In this document: positions 9,791 through 61,010 of the stretch, in pieces | Layout of the letters: every line of letters starts with the position of its first letter | How positions within the stretch are numbered: the stretch's first letter is position 1 | From: Actinomycetota bacterium | GTDB lineage: Bacteria; Actinomycetota; Geothermincolia; Geothermincolales; RBG-13-55-18 | Direction: 5' to 3' | Assembly (NCBI GenBank): GCA_015711955.1 | Contig: JACVJK010000004.1 | Coordinates: 1-61,010, forward strand | Length of the DNA stretch: 61,010 bases | The notes under the pieces: model-generated | Databases searched by the model: none | Told to the model about the DNA's origin: nothing | What the model saw: the letters and a program-made list of their open reading frames with translations, nothing else | Position numbers and translations under genes: made by a program

Positions 9791-10978
9791 ATGACGGTAA
9801 AAGAGGAGGTGCGCCGAGACAGACTGGGGCTTGCCATTTTGGGTTCCACGGGGTCCATAGGGAGGCAGGCCTTGGAGGTGGTGCGCCTTCACCGAGACCG
9901 AACGAGGTTGGTGGCCCTGGTGGCTCGTTCCAACGTCCAACTTCTGGAAGTGCAGGCACGGGAATTCAGGCCCCTAATGGTGGGGATGGTGGAGGAAGGG
10001 CCAGCTCGCGAACTCGAAAGGAACCTTTTCGGGACGGGAATAGAGGTGAGGAGAGGGCCTGACTGCTTGTTGGAGGCTGCAGTCCATCCCCTGGCGGATG
10101 TGGTGCTCAACGCGGTGGTGGGCTCGGCGGGGCTTCCGGCCACTTTGGCCGCCTTGGGAGCTGGAAAAAGGCTCGCCCTGGCCAACAAGGAGAGTCTGGT
10201 GGCTGGGGGCGACCTGGTTCTCAGGGCTTTAAGCGGTGGGGGAGAATTGATACCAGTGGATTCTGAACACAGCGCCATTTTTCATTGTTTGAAGGGAGAG
10301 GATCCCAATGCGGTGGAGAGGATAATCCTCACCGCTTCCGGTGGCCCATTTCGCGGGCGTACCCGGGAAGAACTGGAAGAGGTCACCCCCCAAGAGGCTT
10401 TGCGACACCCCACCTGGGACATGGGAGCGAGGATCACGGTGGATTCTTCCACCCTCATGAACAAGGGCTTTGAGGTCATCGAGGCCCACTACCTTTTCGG
10501 CCTTTCTTACGACCGGATTGAAGTGGTGATCCACCCCCAAAGCATAGTCCATTCCATGGTAGAGTTCAGGGATGGAAGCCTATCAGCCCAGCTCAGCGTG
10601 CCCGATATGAGGATTCCCATCGCTCTGGCCCTCTTTCACCCCGAGCGATGGGAGACCCCGGCGAAACGAACTACCCTCTCCGACTTGAGGTCCCTCACCT
10701 TCGAGCCCGTGGATAAGCACGCTTTTCGCTGCTTGGATCTTGCCTACCAGGCGGGAAGAGCTGGGGGGACGGCAACCGCTGTCTTAAACGCCGTGGACGA
10801 GTTGGCGGTGGAATTGTTCTTGAAGGGAAAGATCGGCTTTCTCGACATCGAGAGGATGGTAGCTGATGTCCTCGAGGCCCATCAGCCAAGGAAAGTGGAG
10901 GTCCTGCAGGACGTTTTGGAGGCCGAGGAGTGGGCCAGGGATAGGGCCATGATTTGGTGGGAGGAGAATCGGAAATGA
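9791..10978 (+). CDS. dxr: 1-deoxy-D-xylulose-5-phosphate reductoisomerase
   Basis: Motifs ILGSTGSIGRQ, LANKESLV, DSEHSAIFHC and NKGFEVIEAH are present. The start is moved to ATG 9791, just before the NADPH-binding motif. Confidence 0.93.
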   Translation: MTVKEEVRRDRLGLAILGSTGSIGRQALEVVRLHRDRTRLVALVARSNVQLLEVQAREFRPLMVGMVEEGPARELERNLFGTGIEVRRGPDCLLEAAVHPLADVVLNAVVGSAGLPATLAALGAGKRLALANKESLVAGGDLVLRALSGGGELIPVDSEHSAIFHCLKGEDPNAVERIILTASGGPFRGRTREELEEVTPQEALRHPTWDMGARITVDSSTLMNKGFEVIEAHYLFGLSYDRIEVVIHPQSIVHSMVEFRDGSLSAQLSVPDMRIPIALALFHPERWETPAKRTTLSDLRSLTFEPVDKHAFRCLDLAYQAGRAGGTATAVLNAVDELAVELFLKGKIGFLDIERMVADVLEAHQPRKVEVLQDVLEAEEWARDRAMIWWEENRK

Positions 10979-22213: not shown

Positions 22214-23383
22214 TCAGTCCCTCTCGACGTTAACCTCCAGCACCGGTCCTTTTAAGCTCCAATGAGGGGTCGACGACGTGACACCGGAAACCACCTCGTA
22301 GTAGCCCTGCAAAAGGCCCACCAAAAGAAGATGCAAGGCCGGGTTGACCATGCGAAGGAACAGGCCTTCAGGGCCAACCCGGAACTCTTCCAGGTAACCC
22401 AACCCCCGCACGGCCAGCAGTCTCCTGAACTCCTCGAGGGTCCCTATGTCGTCGGGCGAGTAAAGACGTCCGCTCTTCACGAATAGCCGCTGTGCCTCCA
22501 CTATCGTTTGAGGTATTTCCTCCCCCAACTCCCGCTCCATCTCGGCGAAGATCGCTTCCAGGTATGCTGGACCTATCATGCAGAGGCGTCTTCCGGAAAG
22601 ACGATCAACGATGATGCCCTCATCGGGGTCCCAAGAGAACCAGGCTAACTCCTGGGGCCCGCCGCAGGAGGGACATGGCTCCAGGTTGTAACCCACTGGT
22701 TGATATGGGTATCTACGAGTTTTGAGTCGCTCCTGGAACTGAGGGGGGTGTTCAGAGGGAAAAACCCTGATCCTGACCAAGTCGTCACCTACCACCTGGT
22801 ATTCAACGTCATTGTCTCGGGAAGTGACCGCCTCCACCGCGCCGGTCATGTCACCGCACCACAAGGGTACTGAATACGGGTTATTGACCACTTGAGTGAG
22901 GTGATCGTCCTCCTGGTATTGGAACTTGTAGCTTTCCAGCTTGGGCTTCCCGTATCCCATGGCCACCGAGATGGCGTTGTTTGCCTGTATGAGAGGCTCC
23001 ACCGGGATCTCAAGTCGCCTCACTCCCTCTCTCACCTCCGGTGGAGTGATGCGTAAGACATAATCCCGAGTGGCCCTCCTTTTGGTCTCTATGACTATGC
23101 GTTCTATGGGGATGGCTAAAAGTTCCTCGATCTTGCGGAAAAGCAAGTCGAGGTTCTCCGTTTCCACGAGCACCATCCTGTGATCGAGATCCAAGCTCTG
23201 CACGGTTACCCCTCCGTCTAGCCATCGATGGTTGGCCACGAAGAGCAGGGGTGCACCGCAGGTGAGGCATCGCTCAAGCCCGAGGTCTTGGTCCAAGATA
23301 ACACCTCCCTCTACTTTATTCGGGGTGCGCTTGAACGCTTCTCGATGGTCTGGTCGAATGTTCGCGTCGGACTTACGCCACAT
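22214..23383 (-). CDS. Hypothetical protein with two tandem CxxC + V4R-like modules
   Basis: An internal duplication is visible. CLTCGAPLLFVANHRWLDGG...RMVLVETENLDLLFRKIEELL...NNPYSVPLWCGDMTGAVEAV aligns with CPSCGGPQELAWFSWDPDEG...RRLCMIGPAYLEAIFAEMEREL...VNPALHLLLVGLLQGYYEVV. A strong SD (AGGGAGGTG) precedes an internal TTG at 23296, which may be the true start. Confidence 0.6.
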   Translation of the reverse strand: MWRKSDANIRPDHREAFKRTPNKVEGGVILDQDLGLERCLTCGAPLLFVANHRWLDGGVTVQSLDLDHRMVLVETENLDLLFRKIEELLAIPIERIVIETKRRATRDYVLRITPPEVREGVRRLEIPVEPLIQANNAISVAMGYGKPKLESYKFQYQEDDHLTQVVNNPYSVPLWCGDMTGAVEAVTSRDNDVEYQVVGDDLVRIRVFPSEHPPQFQERLKTRRYPYQPVGYNLEPCPSCGGPQELAWFSWDPDEGIIVDRLSGRRLCMIGPAYLEAIFAEMERELGEEIPQTIVEAQRLFVKSGRLYSPDDIGTLEEFRRLLAVRGLGYLEEFRVGPEGLFLRMVNPALHLLLVGLLQGYYEVVSGVTSSTPHWSLKGPVLEVNVERD

Positions 23384-54228: not shown

Positions 54229-54381
54229 ACTTGCATGGGCAATGGACTTTTCCCCTGCCTATCATGGACTAAAAGCTGGCCAAAATGGGAAGCTTTAACC
54301 AAGATTAAATGCTGTCGATCTAAAAGGACTGAGGTTAAGTTGCGTCTAATTGTGTTTTAGCGACGGTGGAGAGAGGAAGAC

Positions 54382-54876
54382 ATGGACGGGAACGCTGAAC
54401 GTGTGCAGGCCAAGGCAAGGTCTTTGGCGGATATCCTATCGGTGATTGGACTGGCGGCTGAGGGGGCGATCGGCCCTTCGGCCCCTCGTGTAATGTACTT
54501 CGCCGCCAAGGACTTGGGAACAAAGGAAGGGATCCGGCTCGATCATACGGACGATTTGGAGCAGGCTCTACGGTGGGTCTTGGATATGGAAAAAGGCTCC
54601 TGTTCGGTGTTTTTTTGGAAGGAACCGGGGAAGGAAGATTACTGGAACGAAGAGGGCAAATATGTTTACCTCCGATTCCTGATCAGTGAGTGCCCAGTCA
54701 GGGATGCCTGTTTGGTCTGTGGGGTTCCACTGGGGGGTACCCACTGCCAGGCGACACATGGATATTGGGCAGGCCTTCTGGAAAGCGTATTCTCCCGAAA
54801 AGTAGACCTCTTCACCGAACGCGCAGGATTCGGTAGTTGCCTTATAAGGCTCAGGACCGCGGCGGGATCGGCGTGA
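54382..54876 (+). CDS. V4R-domain (hydrocarbon/small-molecule-binding) protein
   Basis: The C-terminal V4R-like signature is ISECPVRDACLVCGVPLGGTHCQATHGYWAGLLESVF...ERAGFGSCLIRL. The SD is GGAGAGAGGAAG. Confidence 0.65.
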   Translation: MDGNAERVQAKARSLADILSVIGLAAEGAIGPSAPRVMYFAAKDLGTKEGIRLDHTDDLEQALRWVLDMEKGSCSVFFWKEPGKEDYWNEEGKYVYLRFLISECPVRDACLVCGVPLGGTHCQATHGYWAGLLESVFSRKVDLFTERAGFGSCLIRLRTAAGSA

Positions 54877-54891
54877 TTTGAGTCGGGGCGA

Positions 54892-55800
54892 ATGGGCATG
54901 AACAGATTGGCATTAGTACAACTCGGTTCGTGCGGTGGTTGCCAATTGTCCTTGTTGGACTTGGGCGAACGTTTTCTCGATTTAATGGAAACTTATTCCA
55001 TCGAAAGCTTTCCCATGATAAGGGAGGGCGAAGATGCCCCGGAGGCGGATTTAACGCTGGTGGAAGGCACCGTGAGGCATGCCAATCATCTCGCCCTGTT
55101 GAGGAGGGTAAGAGAACGGGGTGGCTCCCTAGTCGCCTTGGGTTCGTGTGCCGTTTTTGGTGGCGTGCAAGGCCTAAGCGATGCCACGGCGGGGGGAAGG
55201 TGGAAGGAGTCCGTGACCCGTGCCAACGCAGGAGAGCACATTCCCCTCTTCACCCGCAGGGTCCTACCGTTGGACGCTTACGTGGCCGTGGATTTCAGGC
55301 TGCCGGGTTGCCCTGTCCCCATGGAGTTGTTGTGGTCTTTTCTCGGGAAGGTGGCCGATGGGTCCTTTACCCCAAGGGACTCTGCCACCGTGTGTGCGGA
55401 GTGCATGCTCAGGGGCGGGAGTACTCGGGGAGGCCCCTTTAGGTTCACCGAGAAGAAGAACGAAAGTGGCACGTGCTTTTTAGAGCAGGGGTTTTTGTGC
55501 ATGGGCCCCACGACCCGCGACGGATGCGGTGCTTATTGCCCGATATCTGGTTATCCCTGTCGGGGATGCAGGGGGCCAACGGATGGCGTGATGTGGTTTC
55601 AACCCTTGGATCCCCGGAGAGAGTCATGGCGAAGGCTGTCTCGTTCCACTGGCCGAAGGGAACATGAGGTCGCGGAGTTCTATCGCGATCCAGCCCATGC
55701 TTTTTTCACGTTCTGTTTGGGGGAACCCCTTTTCAGAAACAGGAGATGGGGAGGCACCCCTGACCTGATACGGAGAATCGAGACCGGTGACTTTAAATGA
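54892..55800 (+). CDS. [NiFe]-hydrogenase small subunit-like protein (group-3 MvhG/FrhG/HoxY-type, NuoB fold) with Cys for three Fe-S clusters
   Basis: The proximal-cluster Cys lie in GSCGGCQ, GSCAVFGG and LPGCPVP. Eight further Cys follow (CAEC ... CFLEQGFLCMGPTTRDGCGAYCPISGYPCRGCRGP). Confidence 0.75.
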   Translation: MGMNRLALVQLGSCGGCQLSLLDLGERFLDLMETYSIESFPMIREGEDAPEADLTLVEGTVRHANHLALLRRVRERGGSLVALGSCAVFGGVQGLSDATAGGRWKESVTRANAGEHIPLFTRRVLPLDAYVAVDFRLPGCPVPMELLWSFLGKVADGSFTPRDSATVCAECMLRGGSTRGGPFRFTEKKNESGTCFLEQGFLCMGPTTRDGCGAYCPISGYPCRGCRGPTDGVMWFQPLDPRRESWRRLSRSTGRREHEVAEFYRDPAHAFFTFCLGEPLFRNRRWGGTPDLIRRIETGDFK

Positions 55801-55850
55801 GTTGAGCAATAGGCAGATTACCTTGCAGGGCAAAGTTGCTGAGGTGCCAG

Positions 55851-57158
55851 ATGCCTGAATACCGGCTGAACAGGGTCTTCGGAGAGGCCTCGCTGATATG
55901 GGAAGTGGACGAGAGCGGTAGGCCCAGTGTTGTCCTTCGGGCTGATGGTTACCGGGGGTTCGAGGTCATATGCCAGGGAGCCCATGGGGAGATCCTGCCA
56001 GATCTACTATCGCGACGCTGCGGCGTGGATTCCCTTTACCATAGAATTGGTGCTTGCATCGCTTTGGAGAGGGCCTTGAAGGTTCAGTTACCCGATGTCG
56101 CCTGGAAGATTAGGGAACTGATCCTTGCCTGCCAGCTTTTCCGCCGCCATTCCCTCACCATGATTCTCCATGTGCTGCCCGACCTGTTCTTCCCCGCCTC
56201 CGATCTAAGCGTGAGGAACTTGGTGGGCCTTTTCCGGGTGGACAGAGATGTGGCCAGGAGAATGATGTCCTTGGCCGCATTGGGAGAGAGGATTTTGAGA
56301 GAATTATGTTTACGATCGGTGCATCCGGTTATCGTCGTTCCTGGAGGCATCACCGGCATCCCCCGAGAGGAATCCATCCAGGCCTTGAAAGGCCTGATAA
56401 CGGATGCCATGGAGCTGGTCAAGGAGACCTCCCGCCTGGTAAAAATGCTCCTTCGCCGCAACGAAGAACTGGTGATGAGTCTGAGCATTCCCGCTGACAT
56501 TGAGATGGCGGCCATGACCCCACCCTTTGGGCCCTCTTGGGAGGGCCTCAGGGTTTTGGGGCTACCGGAGGGAACCAACGTAGATCGTGCGGAGGAGCTG
56601 ATCAAAAGGGCAGAAAGATTTAATTTGCCCCACACCATGTTGGAGGCATGCCGACTCAAGGACCAGGTCGGAAAGGTGTCGACTGGTCCTCTTGCTAGGG
56701 TGAACTCAGGTGGTGGTCAAGGGAGTGAGGTGGCGGAGGCAGAATTGGAGGAACTTAAAAGGACGTGGGGCTTTCCCTTCAAGGGGATCCTCCTATCCCA
56801 TGCCATCCGCATGACAGAGATGATGATGGCCCTGGAAAGGATCCACCGACTCCTCTCGAGGTTCGATGAGTGGAAAAAGGAGGAGAGCAGGAACGAATTG
56901 GCCCCGGGGAGTGGTCGTGGTGCGGTCGCCCTGGAGGGGGCAGAAGGCATCCACCTATATGAAGTGGCGGTTGAGGATGGCTACATTTCCTCTGTAAGTT
57001 ACCATTCCCCCTTACAGTGGAATATCACGGCCATGCTGGGAATCCTTCAGGAAGAGGCCCTCATGGCGGGAGAGGAAATAGGGGGCCCCCGCTGGCAGGC
57101 AAAATCGGGTTTGAGCGTCAGGTCATTCGCCCCCTGTTTCTTCTGTGCTTCGGGATGA
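55851..57158 (+). CDS. [NiFe]-hydrogenase large subunit-like protein with a degenerate active-site signature
   Basis: Overall group-3-like landmarks are present (RGFE, HSLTMILHVLPD, HPVIVVPGG). However, the N-terminus reads RVFGE instead of RxEGH, L1 reads RRCGVDSLYH instead of RxCGxCxxxH, and the C-terminus reads APCFFCASG-stop instead of DPCxxCxxH. ATG 55851 follows a GAGGTG SD. The alternative start is TTG 55836. Confidence 0.65.
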   Translation: MPEYRLNRVFGEASLIWEVDESGRPSVVLRADGYRGFEVICQGAHGEILPDLLSRRCGVDSLYHRIGACIALERALKVQLPDVAWKIRELILACQLFRRHSLTMILHVLPDLFFPASDLSVRNLVGLFRVDRDVARRMMSLAALGERILRELCLRSVHPVIVVPGGITGIPREESIQALKGLITDAMELVKETSRLVKMLLRRNEELVMSLSIPADIEMAAMTPPFGPSWEGLRVLGLPEGTNVDRAEELIKRAERFNLPHTMLEACRLKDQVGKVSTGPLARVNSGGGQGSEVAEAELEELKRTWGFPFKGILLSHAIRMTEMMMALERIHRLLSRFDEWKKEESRNELAPGSGRGAVALEGAEGIHLYEVAVEDGYISSVSYHSPLQWNITAMLGILQEEALMAGEEIGGPRWQAKSGLSVRSFAPCFFCASG

Positions 57159-57161
57159 GGT

Positions 57162-57458
57162 ATGAGCGCAGAGGGAGTGGATAGAGTGGATAGAGATAAA
57201 ATAGAGCTGGATTTGGGCAGGTGTATGGCCTGCGGTGAATGCCTTGATGTCTGTCCCCGATCCTCGGACACGGATTACCCGGTGTTCCGCAGGACGGAGA
57301 TGGGAATGCCCGAGCTGCTTTACCCAGAGAGCTGCATATCCTGCATGGAATGCGCCGTTCGGTGCAGGGCCATGGCCCTCCGCGTCGAGGGCCTTTACCT
57401 CCCACCCTTCAACTTAAAGGACCCCCAGATCACACGAAAGATCTATTCCCTTTATTGA
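57162..57458 (+). CDS. 2x[4Fe-4S] ferredoxin
   Basis: Two cluster motifs are present, CMACGECLDVCP and CISCMECAVRC. The gene lies 3 nt after the large-subunit stop. Confidence 0.8.
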   Translation: MSAEGVDRVDRDKIELDLGRCMACGECLDVCPRSSDTDYPVFRRTEMGMPELLYPESCISCMECAVRCRAMALRVEGLYLPPFNLKDPQITRKIYSLY

Positions 57459-57649
57459 TTCTTGGGTCGTGAGCCTCAGGGCGGGCAGGACGAAGAGAGG
57501 AACTTCCCAGGTTAGGCGTCCTGGTCTAAATAAAAGGTAGACTATGACGATACAGTAATAGGCGCGAGCCTTGTTCGCAGTCGGTTGCCTCCTCGACGCA
57601 ACGTTTGCTGTGGATGAAGATAACGGGAATGGGCGGGAGGTGGTAGGTT

Positions 57650-58003
57650 TTGCCCGATCTCAGGAGAGTTCTGGAGGAGTTGGTGGCCACCGGGGCAGTT
57701 AAAGCCTGCCTTGTGGTGGGAAGGGACGGTTTCATCATCGAGGCCGTGGGTAGCGACCCCTCTCAACTCGAGGCAGTGGGGGCTATAGCTCCCAGCTCTT
57801 TGGGGGCGGCCGAGGTGATAGGTTTGGAATTGGCCCAAGGGCCCATGAGCCAGGCCATGTTCGAATTCGAGAAGGGGGCTATCCTCATGAGCGCAGTGGG
57901 CCAAGACGCCATACTGGTGAGCATCCTCCCCTCCAGTGCGAACCTCGGAAAAGCCCGATACGACATTAGAAAATTCCTTCCGGCCATCGAGAAGGCCCTG
58001 TGA
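57650..58003 (+). CDS. Roadblock/LC7 (MglB-like) domain protein, paralogue 1
   Basis: The 117-aa protein has a Roadblock-type pattern (VKACLVVGRDGFIIEAVG ... AILMSAVGQDAILVSILPSSANLG). The TTG start follows GGGAGGTGG. Confidence 0.75.
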   Translation: MPDLRRVLEELVATGAVKACLVVGRDGFIIEAVGSDPSQLEAVGAIAPSSLGAAEVIGLELAQGPMSQAMFEFEKGAILMSAVGQDAILVSILPSSANLGKARYDIRKFLPAIEKAL

Positions 58004-58038
58004 GGCCGCCGCTGCCTTGATACAGAGGTGGTGCTAAA

Positions 58039-58413
58039 GTGGCAACCGAGAGGTTGGAGAGGATGAACTCGGTACTCAGGGAGCTGAGGGCCAACTTGCC
58101 CGAGGTGGAGGCGGCCGTACTCATAAGCAGCGATGCCATGGCCTTGGCGTCAGACATATCCGATGATTCCGATGAGGAGATGATAAGTGCCCTCTCCAGT
58201 TCAGTGCTGAATATGGGAGAGAGGGCATCTCGAGACCTAAAAAGAGGGGTGTTGGAGCAGGTTTTCATAAAAGGCGACCAGGGCTCCCTTTTGCTATTGC
58301 ACTGTGGCCCCCATGCCCTTCTCTCTTTGATGGTAAGACCCGAGGCCAAGTTGGGAGTGGTTCTTATGGAGGCCAAAAGAACAGCCGAGGAATTGTCTAG
58401 ACTGTTCGAGTAA
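58039..58413 (+). CDS. Roadblock/LC7 (MglB-like) domain protein, paralogue 2
   Basis: The 124-aa protein reads VEAAVLISSDAMALAS ... LLLLHCGPHALLSLMVRPEAKLG. It aligns clearly with paralogue 3. Confidence 0.75.
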   Translation: MATERLERMNSVLRELRANLPEVEAAVLISSDAMALASDISDDSDEEMISALSSSVLNMGERASRDLKRGVLEQVFIKGDQGSLLLLHCGPHALLSLMVRPEAKLGVVLMEAKRTAEELSRLFE

Positions 58414-58470
58414 TACGCGGTCTAGGATCCCGTCGTCTCGTGAAATTGAGTCGTAAAGGAGGTACGGTCC

Positions 58471-58869
58471 TTGTCGGAGTCACGGGAGGAAAGACTCAGG
58501 AAGGCCCTACAAGAATTGATATCCAGATCCGCCGAAGTGGACGCGGCGGCAGTGGTGAGCATGGACGGATTGGTGATGGCCTCTGTCCTTCCCAATACCA
58601 TGGAGGAAGATCGACTGGGAGCCATGTCGGCAGCCCTGCTCAGTCTGGGCGAAAGGACCTCCGAAGAGTTGGGAAGGGGGGAACTCTCCCAGGTGTTCGT
58701 GGAAGGAAAGGATGGGTACGTATTCCTCATGGCTGCTGGCCCGGACGCAGTCTTGACGGCCCTGGTGCGGAAAGGTAGCAAACTCGGCCTGGTCCTGTAT
58801 GACGTCAAAGGAGCGGCCAAGAAGATCGCGGAGATAATAGCCTCCGAATTCAAGATTGAGTACGAATAA
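58471..58869 (+). CDS. Roadblock/LC7 (MglB-like) domain protein, paralogue 3
   Basis: The 132-aa protein reads VDAAAVVSMDGLVMAS ... VFLMAAGPDAVLTALVRKGSKLG. The TTG start follows an AAGGAGG SD. Confidence 0.75.
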   Translation: MSESREERLRKALQELISRSAEVDAAAVVSMDGLVMASVLPNTMEEDRLGAMSAALLSLGERTSEELGRGELSQVFVEGKDGYVFLMAAGPDAVLTALVRKGSKLGLVLYDVKGAAKKIAEIIASEFKIEYE

Positions 58870-59028
58870 ATCGACATAATCTATATGGGAAGGATGGGTT
58901 GCAACGGCCTTCAGGGGATGGTGATATGGGGCAGCGGATCATACCAGGATGTGTACTCCAGATCCGAAGATAGACAAGCAAAAAGATACAAAGTCCAGGG
59001 ATATTCAAGCAAGAAGAGATGATGGGCA

Positions 59029-61010
59029 ATGGCTCTCAAGGGAAGTTTGAGGGATTTCAGCCTCCCGGACCTATTCCAGCTGCTGAATTTCAGCAAAAAG
59101 AACGGCACCCTTAACCTCGTGAGGGGAAATTCTCGAGGCTATATATGCTTCCGCAACGGGGAGGTGTTTTTCGCCACCACCAACTGGAAGCGACAATCCC
59201 TCGGCATGAAGTTGGTGGGGGCCGGACTCATTACCAAGGAACAACTCAACGAGGCCTTGGAGCTGCAGCGTTCTGAGGCCAAAGGTCAGAGGTTGGGACA
59301 GATCTTGGTGCGTCTCGGGTACATCACCCAGGAACAGCTGGAAGTTTTCGTGGAAGAACAGATCCAGGACGCCGTCTTCGAGATGTTGAGATGGACGGAT
59401 GGGGAATTCGAATTCCAACCTGGCGTGGTCTTTCCAGAGGAGGACATTGGCCTCTCCATAAGCACCGAGGAGCTGATAATGGAGGGGTCGCGGCGACTGG
59501 ACGAATGGAACCGCATTGAGAAGAAGATACCTCACTTAGACGTGGTCTTGCGTATGAAATCGATGCAAGGAATGGAGGCGGCCCAGATAAGCCTGACCCC
59601 GGAGGAGTGGATGGTGCTCACCTATGTGGACGGCGAGAGGACGGTCAGACAGATAGTGGAGCTGACCGGCATGAGCACCCTGCAGACCTGTAAGATCCTC
59701 TATGGCTTGATGAGCTCTGGCCTTTTGGAAAACGTGGCTCCAGAGGGGGTAGGACTTGAGTCGGAGAGAAGACTGGAGGAACTGGCGAAACAGCTGGAAA
59801 AGACGGAGGATGAATCAATTGTTGGAGTTCTACAGGGGGATGTGGCGGCTGGGGAAGCAAACGCGCTGTTCACCGATAGGGAGATGGGCCTTACCGAAAG
59901 GGTAGAAAGTCTCCTGAGGGAGCTCGAAAGGCCCTCAAAGGATAGGGGCTCCGGGGAAATGAACGGCGAAGAGATCCCTACCTCCAGGGCTGAGGATGAG
60001 GGGATATTGAGGTGGATTGAGATAAGGGACATACAAGACAAAATCCCCCAGGCCTCTTCCTCTGGTGGTGAGGGAGGGGGAATCGTGACCGCACCCAAAG
60101 AACCGCCGATGTCCTCTGCCCAAAAACCCCCACTGACCGAGGAGGCGGCTTGTGAGGAGAGCGTCGACCGGGCAGGCGAAGAGATCTGGGTGTCTTCCGA
60201 CGAGCCTGTGGAGATCGTGGTGGAAGAGGAAGATGAAGAGATCGTGTCGGTGGAGGAAGTAGACTCAGAAACTAAAGCCGGGATTGGGAGGGAAGAATCC
60301 TCGTCCGTTTCCTGCGAAGTCCAAGGTGGGGTTACGGAGGCTGAGGCGGATTCTATCGCCGTGGAGCGGGGGGACCAAGTTGAGATGGTCCCCGAAGAGA
60401 TGGAAAGGAGGAGGGAAAAGACCGAAGAGCTTATCCGGAAAAGATTCGAGGAGGAGAGGAGAAGGCTAGAGGAGCTCAAGCGGAGGACATTGGCAGAGAC
60501 TCTGGAAGCAACTTCGGTGGTAAACGTCAGTAGGCCCGTGAAGGACAGACCTCAAGATGAGGAACTGGCGGAAACGGTTCAGACGAGGGAATCTGAGATT
60601 TCAGCACCGCATGCAATCGCTGACAGTAGGCCCCCACATGAAGGGGATCTGCTGCACGAAAGCGAGATGGCAAGAAGGGCTAAAATTTCGTATTTGGCAA
60701 AGAAGTACGGAACCAAATGGGAGGAATGGGGCCGTGTCGTTGGCGAGGAAAAACCGCAAGAGGATAGTGCAGCGGGCGACGAGCTTTTAGCAAAGACGGA
60801 AATTGTATCGGCAGCGGATGTTCTTTCCGAAGAAAAGGAAAGAACGGTTCCCTTCCTCGTTTCTTCCCCCGAGGTCCTGGAGTCGGTGATGCTCGAGGAC
60901 CTCAGGGCACCGGAGGAAAGGGTCCCCGAGGAATCCGCCCTGGAGCTCCTGGAAAGGCAGCAAGGAGAGGCTCCGGCTCCTCCTCCCCCCTCCCCCGAGG
61001 TCCTGGAGTC
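59029..61010 (+). CDS. PATAN/DUF4388-domain protein with MshEN-like motifs and a long acidic tail (3'-partial, runs off the window)
   Basis: I translated this frame by hand and found it open from ATG 59029 to the window end (660 codons), which is probably why it is absent from the ORF track. The N-terminus [28 protein letters not shown] is the DUF4388 signature. The minus-strand ORFs 59071-59535 and 59700-60479 are its shadows. Confidence 0.8.

Follow-up and report, generated by a model that had tools for sequence, protein, structure and literature searches.

Positions 54382 to 61010 of contig JACVJK010000004.1 from an Actinomycetota bacterium (GCA_015711955.1) form the last part of the 61,010-nucleotide (nt) stretch of DNA analysed here (hereafter the window), and encode a hydrogenase-like block — a V4R-fold protein (p164), homologues of the small and large subunits of a [NiFe]-hydrogenase, and a ferredoxin — followed by three Roadblock/LC7 genes (RoblA, RoblB and RoblC) and a gene for a PATAN (DUF4388) protein. 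In related loci the array runs on into a small GTPase gene and the type IV pilus genes pilB and pilT. The best single reading of this arrangement, and one that we hold tentatively, is that a hydrogenase-derived redox sensor feeds a pilus GTPase switch, with the coupling between the two halves resting on gene order and on one evolutionary event. The first-pass annotation, made from the DNA alone, knew of no described system with this composition. For the signalling half this does not hold, as the switch itself is of a known kind with a known association with pili, whereas the literature searched offers no description of the hydrogenase-like family or of where it is placed, and we found no paper in it on a hydrogenase together with Roadblock proteins or on this locus in Geothermincolia. 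From 54382 onwards, the window contains eight open reading frames (ORFs), all co-directional on the plus strand, and one conserved non-coding element (lengths in amino acids, aa):

54382..54876, plus strand: p164, V4R-fold protein, 164 aa; first gene of the hydrogenase-like block
54892..55800, plus strand: small-subunit homologue of [NiFe]-hydrogenase, MvhG/VhuG type, 302 aa
55851..57158, plus strand: degenerate large-subunit homologue of [NiFe]-hydrogenase, MvhA/VhuA type, 435 aa, or 440 aa from a TTG at 55836
57162..57458, plus strand: ferredoxin with two [4Fe-4S] clusters, 98 aa; begins 3 nt past the large subunit
57526..57563, plus strand: conserved non-coding block within the 191-nt ferredoxin–RoblA spacer
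57650..58003, plus strand: RoblA, Roadblock/LC7, 117 aa; TTG start
58039..58413, plus strand: RoblB, Roadblock/LC7, 124 aa; GTG start
58471..58869, plus strand: RoblC, Roadblock/LC7, 132 aa; TTG start
59029..61010, plus strand: PATAN (DUF4388) protein, at least 660 aa with no stop; cut by the window end

Intergenic gaps from 54382 to the window end measure 15, 35-50, 3, 191, 35, 57 and 159 nt, in agreement with the earlier description of co-directional genes spaced 3-190 nt apart, and the array starts directly after alaS-ruvX-mltG, as had been stated, both in the window and in related loci. The earlier count of nine genes needs correcting, as eight lie in the window and the ninth, the GTPase gene, lies outside. 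The sole candidate for a ninth gene inside the window, a 45-aa ORF at 58885-59022, was rejected: it is unconserved, and the spacer at that point is 93-105 nt in L001, L002 and L030 (L numbers designate related loci). The true ninth gene is an MglA-type GTPase just past the window end, seen in related loci. All three Roadblock genes have non-ATG starts (TTG, GTG and TTG), and a very strong, invariant GGGAGGTGG Shine-Dalgarno sequence precedes RoblA.

A genome scan recovered 19 species-level metagenome-assembled genomes (MAGs), all Actinomycetota (Ca. Geothermincolales, Ca. Geothermincola and Ca. Solincola), and a metagenome scan with a p164 profile added 22 further loci; gene order was then mapped by tblastn of all genes in the loci long enough to show it (about 35, a few of them redundant, and all from Actinomycetota of the Geothermincolia type). 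Every sufficiently long locus displays the order alaS-ruvX-mltG-p164-small-large-fdx-RoblA-RoblB-RoblC-PATAN-GTPase-aroE-pilB-pilT, to which L005 adds pilC and a pilin gene. The two halves of the array (54382-57458 and 57650-61010), on whose adjacency in related genomes the first-pass annotation had staked its proposal, thus adjoin in all of these loci. The order persists in L028, whose alaS is 49% identical to that of the window and hence as distant as the outgroups, and only ~80 nt separate the ferredoxin gene from the next gene, a RoblB-like one, in L005 and L029.

Outgroup loci L006, L026 and L027 carry a single Roadblock gene, a PATAN gene (372-404 aa; 45-51% identical to the window PATAN) and a GTPase gene, then pilB-pilT-pilC-pilins, with no hydrogenase-like genes. 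The trio follows alaS-ruvX-mltG-aroE in L027 and L006 and follows yebC in L026; its position before pilus genes even at this other chromosomal site indicates that the trio travels with the pilus genes. In the outgroups aroE lies between mltG and the Roadblock gene (8557-9429 in L027, 8446-9280 in L006), and in the Geothermincolia type it comes after the GTPase gene (17085-17969 in L025). This shift in position implies that the nine genes constitute one insert between mltG and aroE, and that a rearrangement accompanied the arrival of the hydrogenase-like genes. RoblA and RoblB are found only where the hydrogenase-like block occurs, and the alaS, RoblC and PATAN trees are compatible with the block having been gained once. 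Support for coupling thus comes from the restriction of RoblA and RoblB to block-bearing loci, the behaviour of the nine genes as one insert, the short spacer in L005 and L029, and the order kept in L028.

The hydrogenase-like half derives, by the matches of both its subunits, from an Mvh-type (group 3c) [NiFe]-hydrogenase, and its predicted wire of five [4Fe-4S] clusters is intact. The small subunit matches Oxidored_q6 (E 2e-22), VhuG (1e-45) and the MvhG chain 5odc_E (8.5e-46) with the Cys motifs aligned, and its 12 Cys, accounting for three [4Fe-4S] clusters (proximal, medial and distal), are invariant in 23 orthologues and also in L028 and L029. The ferredoxin matches Fer4 families and has two CxxCxxCxxxC motifs, whose 8 Cys show no variation among 22 orthologues and also occur in L028 and L029. 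Earlier calls of a complete Fe-S small subunit and of a ferredoxin are therefore borne out by the 12 Cys with MvhG-level matches and by the paired motifs, respectively. The large subunit matches NiFeSe_Hases (2e-12), VhuA (3e-34) and the MvhA chain 5odc_F (2.6e-27, residues 7-434); it scores 118 bits against the VhuA equivalog, far below the cut-off of 800, and is nonetheless homologous over its full length.

The Ni-Fe site, judged by its signature motifs, is eroded differently by lineage, the catalytic Arg being lost everywhere and different Cys ligands in different lineages. In the window the signature reads RRCGVDSLYH, EGAEG and APCFFCASG followed by the stop. The L1 motif RxCGxCxxxH is broken in the window and Solincola clades, where its second Cys is Asp; L017-L019 and L021 retain the L1 CxxC, and all four Cys are retained in these Geothermincola-type loci and in L029. 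Of the C-terminal DPCxxCxxH, the window keeps both Cys, with Asp changed to Ala and the terminal His to Gly; this Asp is Ala or Ser in all orthologues, the terminal His is missing throughout the window clade, and L028 has lost both C-terminal Cys (NPHFHDAVF). At the canopy Arg position of EAPRG, 22 of the 23 orthologues have Glu and the other, L021, has Gly, none keeping Arg; among the nearest 136 hydrogenase representatives, Arg is kept in 120 and the L1 CxxC in 126. Damage to the Ni-Fe signature, as first noticed in the window, thus extends to an L1 Cys, the canopy Arg, the Asp of DPC and the terminal His. Because the Fe-S cysteines are strictly retained while the metal site drifts, the function under conservation is more plausibly electron transfer or redox sensing than H2 catalysis.

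This large subunit is rare. Only 3 close relatives were found among 5.8 billion clusters, and its family amounts to ~4 clusters (50% identity) among 1.84 billion representatives, set apart from ordinary group-3 hydrogenases by a drop in score from 234 to 185 bits. The ratio of non-synonymous to synonymous substitution rates (dN/dS) is 0.1-0.3 for the hydrogenase-like genes, comparable to alaS and mltG, and 0.01-0.05 for the Roadblock, PATAN, GTPase and pilT genes. We accordingly dropped the idea that the hydrogenase-like genes evolve abnormally fast: their rate is that of mltG and aroE, and the switch genes are the unusually conserved ones. Pseudogenes were likewise ruled out by ORFs intact in ~45 loci and by dN/dS of 0.1-0.3. 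No hyp, MvhD or Hdr genes occur in the 61-kb window or in related loci, and the absence of MvhD with HdrABC from the window and ~45 related loci separates the pair from Mvh-Hdr complexes. Nor does it qualify as a group 2b regulatory hydrogenase, the closest families being group 3 and the loci containing no kinase. Loss of the Ni-Fe site is recurrent in group-3 relatives, similar degeneracy being seen in about a dozen of the 136 nearest large subunits. In one archaeal locus (L052 6679-11290, with eIF-5A and deoxyhypusine synthase genes nearby), an eroded large subunit (MVCGSNAVSH, ESPEG, GPCFSH) accompanies HdrA-like, MvhD and MvhG genes.

Assignment of p164 to V4R holds at the level of the predicted fold only. 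The window protein itself has no Pfam match, to V4R (PF02830) or otherwise, and 21 of 29 family members give V4R matches below the gathering cut-off (best E 0.0035); a sequence-profile search against solved structures found no match, and only the fold search succeeded. With an AlphaFold (AF2) model of p164 (pLDDT 85), that search retrieved the V4R sensor domains of PoxR, MopR and DmpR (E 4e-5, TM ~0.6) and, more weakly, TRAPP Bet3/TRAPPC3 and MJ1460 (range E 4e-5 to 2e-2, TM 0.5-0.6). The earlier V4R call therefore survives through the model's fold match, but not as a Pfam assignment of the window protein. The p164 family comprises 52 clusters only, under the JGI name ‘predicted hydrocarbon binding protein’. 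Alignments show C104, C110, C122, H126 and C153 unchanged throughout the core family, C110 being substituted in L029, and in all loci the spacing between p164 and the small-subunit gene is 3-30 nt. A conserved non-coding block lies upstream of p164 at ~54314-54350 (CGATCTTGAAGGAG ... GCGTCAAATT, clade consensus) and is unlike the block that precedes RoblA.

As for the signalling half, the RoblA-RoblB-RoblC-PATAN-GTPase genes form, judged from gene content and order, the regulatory part at the front of a type IV pilus locus, with predicted cyclic di-GMP (c-di-GMP) input, a known kind of module. This follows from the outgroups, where Roadblock-PATAN-GTPase stands directly before pilB-pilT-pilC-pilins. 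Homologues of MglA and MglB are often encoded near PATAN proteins (PMC4316618), and the PATAN domain has a helical insert similar to the N-terminal part of PilB-type ATPases; in Synechocystis it determines in which direction the pili move the cell, and its binding partners there are PilB1 and PilC (bioRxiv 10.1101/2021.06.11.447907).

The three Roadblock/LC7 calls all clear the Pfam cut-off of 23 bits for Robl_LC7 (PF03259), at 4.5e-13 and 49.2 bits for RoblA, 9e-16 and 57.8 bits for RoblB, and 1.3e-19 and 70.1 bits for RoblC. Against the MglB equivalog NF052242 (cut-off 200 bits) the Roadblock proteins score only 32.6, 15.4 and 13.9 bits. RoblC is 57-60% identical to the outgroup Roadblock proteins, and its closest solved relatives are 7f8m (3.6e-21) and CvnB5 (3leq, 1e-17), with solved MglB chains at 0.02. 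RoblB is 36-41% identical to RoblC and the outgroup Roadblock, and RoblA, although 84-98% identical across the class, only 26-31%. By these identities the lone Roadblock of the outgroups is orthologous to RoblC, which makes RoblC the ancestral copy, and RoblA and RoblB are lineage-specific added paralogues, RoblA being the divergent one. Because the orthologous outgroup gene stands before PATAN-GTPase-pilB, RoblC is likely an MglB/CvnB-type partner of the GTPase.

The PATAN call is equally well founded: residues 4-161 match DUF4388 (PF14332; 2.4e-38, 131.4 bits against a cut-off of 25), and the MshEN-like motifs noted earlier correspond to NF053729, a c-di-GMP motif related to MshE (55.7 bits, cut-off 38), and are readable in translation at aa 58-111 as tandem 24-residue MshEN-type motifs, RLGxx(L/V/I)(L/V/I)xxG(L/V/I)(L/V/I)xxxxLxxxLxxQ. 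From these motifs the PATAN protein is predicted to bind c-di-GMP. No receiver (REC) domain was found in the 660 aa of the window PATAN or in the 1081-aa orthologue of L025. In relatives the full-length gene is a single ORF of about 1080-1175 aa (1081 aa in L025, 1137 aa in L014, 1174 aa in L030). An acidic, low-complexity tail (~20% Glu) fills 59780-61010 of the window and runs into a ~43-aa repeat; in L030 (5840-9364), of the same clade, the tail has two arrays of ~43-aa repeats (SPE(E)...) and a basic, amphipathic-looking C-terminus (...TKSIIMRIIEGIKRL). The contigs of the window, L001, L002 and L007 all break within the PATAN gene, most likely because of this repeat. In L004 (GCA_936414295.1, 10001-13521) PATAN is called as two pieces of 221 and 893 aa, and a tblastn frame jump at ~10494-10498 suggests that the low-complexity region there contains a frameshift or was misassembled.

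Beyond 61010 the first-pass annotation had anticipated a Ras/MglA-like GTPase, and a 177-aa GTPase indeed follows the PATAN gene in 21 related loci, after a gap of 13-25 nt. It matches PF03029 (ATP_bind_1, 8e-16) and Ras (2e-6), and in L025 and L030 it has the hallmarks of MglA: a P-loop GPFSAGKT, the motif GTPGQ with Thr for Asp, and an Arg that lines up with the arginine finger of MglA (3t12). The other genes named in the same forecast, for DUF742 (CvnC) or a histidine kinase (CvnA), are absent from the called genes of L004, L005, L006, L026 and L027.

The spacer before RoblA is 176-550 nt across loci and contains, at 57526-57563 of the window, the element CTAAAyAA...GACTwTGACGATACAGTAATArGC, of which ~26 nt are identical in the window, L001, L002 and L030 while the flanking genes are 55-65% identical. 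Solincola-type loci have TGACGATA- and TGTCGATA-like copies in this ferredoxin–RoblA spacer. Such conservation makes the block a candidate control site, promoter or operator, of the Roadblock-PATAN-GTPase genes. It lacks an Rfam match (E up to 1) and obvious sigma-70 spacing, it folds no better than shuffled sequence (z -0.28), and promoter and terminator scans performed at chance level and made no call there. An RNA element or riboswitch in the spacers, such as a c-di-GMP riboswitch, was rejected for lack of an Rfam match at E up to 1 and of folding beyond shuffles. We also rejected an operator common to the two halves, as the window shows no enrichment of the TGACGATAC motif and the element upstream of p164 differs.

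In the sensor–switch reading, the V4R protein, small and large subunits and ferredoxin would form a soluble Fe-S complex for which H2 turnover is no longer the main job. The complex would register how reduced the ferredoxin/H2 pool is, or else the binding of a ligand to the V4R protein or to the remnant metal site, and its state would be handed to RoblA and RoblB, serving as adaptors or as modulators of guanine-nucleotide exchange factor (GEF) or GTPase-activating protein (GAP) type, in the manner of MglC or of Ragulator Roadblock dimers. RoblA and RoblB would then act on the pair of RoblC and MglA-type GTPase; the state of the GTPase, together with c-di-GMP-bound PATAN, would set where or whether PilB and PilT build and retract pili, so that redox state or H2 would guide twitching or attachment to surfaces. 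Published Ca. Solincola MAGs are characterised as anaerobes that use the Wood-Ljungdahl pathway and carry hydrogenases, Hdr, Rnf and type IV pili, a described MAG of this group having no flagella (PMC12917137). We think it rather unlikely that the chain holds in its full form, in which the sensor would read ferredoxin/H2 state and pass it via RoblA and RoblB to the GTPase, which with the c-di-GMP-binding PATAN would position or gate the pilus motor of these anaerobic, acetogen-like actinobacteria; a further layer is conceivable, in which the V4R (Bet3-fold) protein and the Roadblocks would make up a TRAPP/Ragulator-like exchange-factor platform. The earlier proposal of a hydrogenase-derived sensor feeding an MglB/PATAN-type switch thus gains from the composition, the GTPase and the conserved adjacency, but its coupling step is drawn from a single gain event.

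Several observations weigh against such coupling. The trees place one gain of the block in one clade, so that its co-occurrence with the switch counts as n = 1, and mltG and aroE are neighbours just as frozen; since housekeeping genes are equally fixed there, conserved adjacency within this lineage is weak evidence for function. The conserved block in the pre-RoblA spacer would suit a separate promoter or operator, and the halves evolve at different rates (35-64% identity across loci for the hydrogenase-like genes, 76-98% for the Roadblock, PATAN and GTPase genes) with no sign of co-evolution. Elsewhere, too, degenerate group-3 large subunits occur in settings devoid of Roadblock genes, one of them archaeal with HdrA, MvhD and MvhG, and a search for an independent co-occurrence of a degenerate large subunit with Roadblock genes yielded P0145, in an archaeal Hdr/Mvh context without Roadblock genes, and P0209, on a contig too short to tell. 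All this leaves real room for the main competing explanation, that a stand-alone redox protein or enzyme operon of the anaerobic metabolism and an independent pilus regulator are simply unrelated neighbours, adjacent since the region is rarely rearranged: a single gain would explain the arrangement, p164 has its own upstream conserved element distinct from that before RoblA, the long pre-RoblA spacer likewise has its own, and the outgroup switch works without any hydrogenase-like block. Independence does not, however, account for the appearance of RoblA and RoblB solely with the block, for the displacement of aroE by nine genes as one unit, or for a spacer of merely ~80 nt in L005 and L029; it has to accommodate 0 exceptions in ~35 loci with alaS identity down to 49%, and a stand-alone enzyme is hard to picture around a large subunit without a conserved catalytic site.

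Two further explanations concern the biochemistry of the block itself. A working, if unusual, ferredoxin-linked [NiFe]-hydrogenase that makes or consumes H2 with Asp for a bridging Cys would be consistent with the full retention of the fold and of the three-cluster small subunit, the adjoining ferredoxin partner, the four Cys of L017-L019, L021 and L029, and purifying selection on the genes; even the missing C-terminal extension has parallels in some canonical group-3 relatives. We nevertheless judge it very improbable, as the canopy Arg, which 120 of the 136 nearest representatives retain, has given way to Glu in every orthologue except L021 (Gly), its DPC Asp partner is Ala or Ser, the ligand set varies by lineage (Cys to Asp in the window clade, both C-terminal Cys lost in L028), and hyp, MvhD and Hdr genes are lacking in the window and loci. 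Alternatively, the V4R protein could be the business end, the Fe-S chain and ferredoxin feeding electrons to its hydrophobic ligand or metal site in a reductase or ligand-processing enzyme and not a sensor. The V4R fold builds ligand cavities in PoxR, MopR and TRAPPC3 (PMC10933270), and the Cys and His invariant in the p164 core family, together with the tight 3-30-nt linkage of p164 to the small-subunit gene in all loci, would fit such a role. This too appears improbable: the V4R domains known so far serve for sensing or scaffolding and not for catalysis, L029 has another residue in place of C110, and the extra Roadblock paralogues would be left unexplained. A hydrogenase-derived sensor coupled to the pilus switch therefore stays our preferred, provisional interpretation.

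The remaining content of the window is housekeeping: rpsB-tsf-pyrH-frr, dxr, ispG, proS, ruvCAB, queA-tgt, secDF, relA, hisS, aspS and alaS. The label ‘accessory’, attached earlier to the array, does not suit it, the block being fixed across Geothermincolia-type genomes with the housekeeping genes mltG and aroE on either side. An accessory or mobile island was ruled out, base composition running on without a break, no tRNA being present and the block being fixed across the class. Elsewhere in the window, a 389-aa ORF at 22214-23383 (minus strand), between genes for a sodium:solute symporter and a glycosyltransferase, has no Pfam match at 1e-5.

If the sensor–switch reading is correct, the array would provide the first hydrogenase-derived Fe-S protein wired to a Ras-like GTPase switch, known H2 sensors using a histidine kinase, and the first proposed route from redox or H2 state to pilus-driven movement in anaerobic actinobacteria. 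Within one orthologous family, moreover, the Ni-Fe site forms an erosion series from four Cys through three Cys plus Asp to two Cys, which informs the passage from hydrogenase to non-catalytic redox module, as toward complex I. Were the coupling not real, what would be left is a rare but ordinary hydrogenase-like operon beside a known type of pilus regulator. Positions 54382-61010 and the GTPase outside bring a V4R protein (Bet3/TRAPPC3 fold), three Roadblock proteins and a small GTPase together in one array, the parts list of eukaryotic TRAPP and Ragulator. Genes for V4R, Roadblock and small-GTPase proteins in Asgard archaea are generally not in operons, according to a 2024 study (PMC10933270), which leaves the partners unmatched there and makes the single array here a tractable model.

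Among known systems, the array resembles MglA/MglB of Myxococcus xanthus and Thermus thermophilus (including MglC) in its Ras-like GTPase, the Thr in TxxGQ, the finger-aligned Arg, the paired Roadblock and the tie to PilB/PilT (PMC4316618), and departs from them in Roadblocks closer to CvnB and three in a row, a giant PATAN protein before the GTPase, no RomR or RomX seen, and genes lying within the pilus locus. With the actinobacterial conservon (CvnA-CvnD) it shares a CvnB-like Roadblock (3leq 1e-17) and an ATP_bind_1/Ras GTPase (PF03029 8e-16), but the loci contain no CvnA histidine kinase or CvnC (DUF742) and have PATAN and pilus genes instead. Some Streptomyces conservons have adjacent redox enzymes (P450s). 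The PATAN domain, with its alpha-helical insert resembling the PilB N-terminus, recalls the PatA-type regulators of cyanobacteria (PixG, PixE, PilG), whereas the lack of a receiver domain, a repeat-bearing acidic tail of ~700-900 aa and a proposed input from GTPase and c-di-GMP in place of phosphorylation distinguish it.

On the hydrogenase side, group 3c Mvh/Vhu enzymes give the best matches of both subunits and share the three-cluster small subunit, but here the Ni-Fe signature is altered and lineage-variable, MvhD and Hdr are missing, and the pair is accompanied by a V4R protein and a small ferredoxin. The concept of a hydrogenase-derived, low-turnover sensor is that of the group 2b H2 sensors (HoxBC/HupUV with the kinase HoxJ/HupT), the large subunits of which likewise stop at the mature C-terminus with no cleaved extension. 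H2-sensing hydrogenases retain a canonical active site; the pair described here is 3c-like in type, has no histidine kinase, has lost the catalytic Arg, and would have a GTPase switch and not transcription as its output. Like NuoB/NuoD of complex I and the Ehr complexes, it pairs a large-subunit homologue short of Ni-Fe ligands, kept as an electron-transfer partner, with an Fe-S small subunit; unlike them it would be soluble, has no membrane subunits, and retains the full set of three clusters in the small subunit and between two and four of the four Cys.

For p164, the predicted fold is like that of the V4R domains of PoxR, MopR and DmpR, and its Cys-rich site resembles their Zn site (PMC10933270); it is unlike known V4R systems in being a stand-alone protein of 164 aa with a long N-terminal helix, below the Pfam threshold and encoded with a hydrogenase-like pair. 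The fold is also that of Bet3/TRAPPC3, and TRAPP itself combines Bet3-fold subunits with longin/Roadblock-like subunits to act as a GEF for a small GTPase, a role that for p164 and its Roadblock neighbours would be conjectural.

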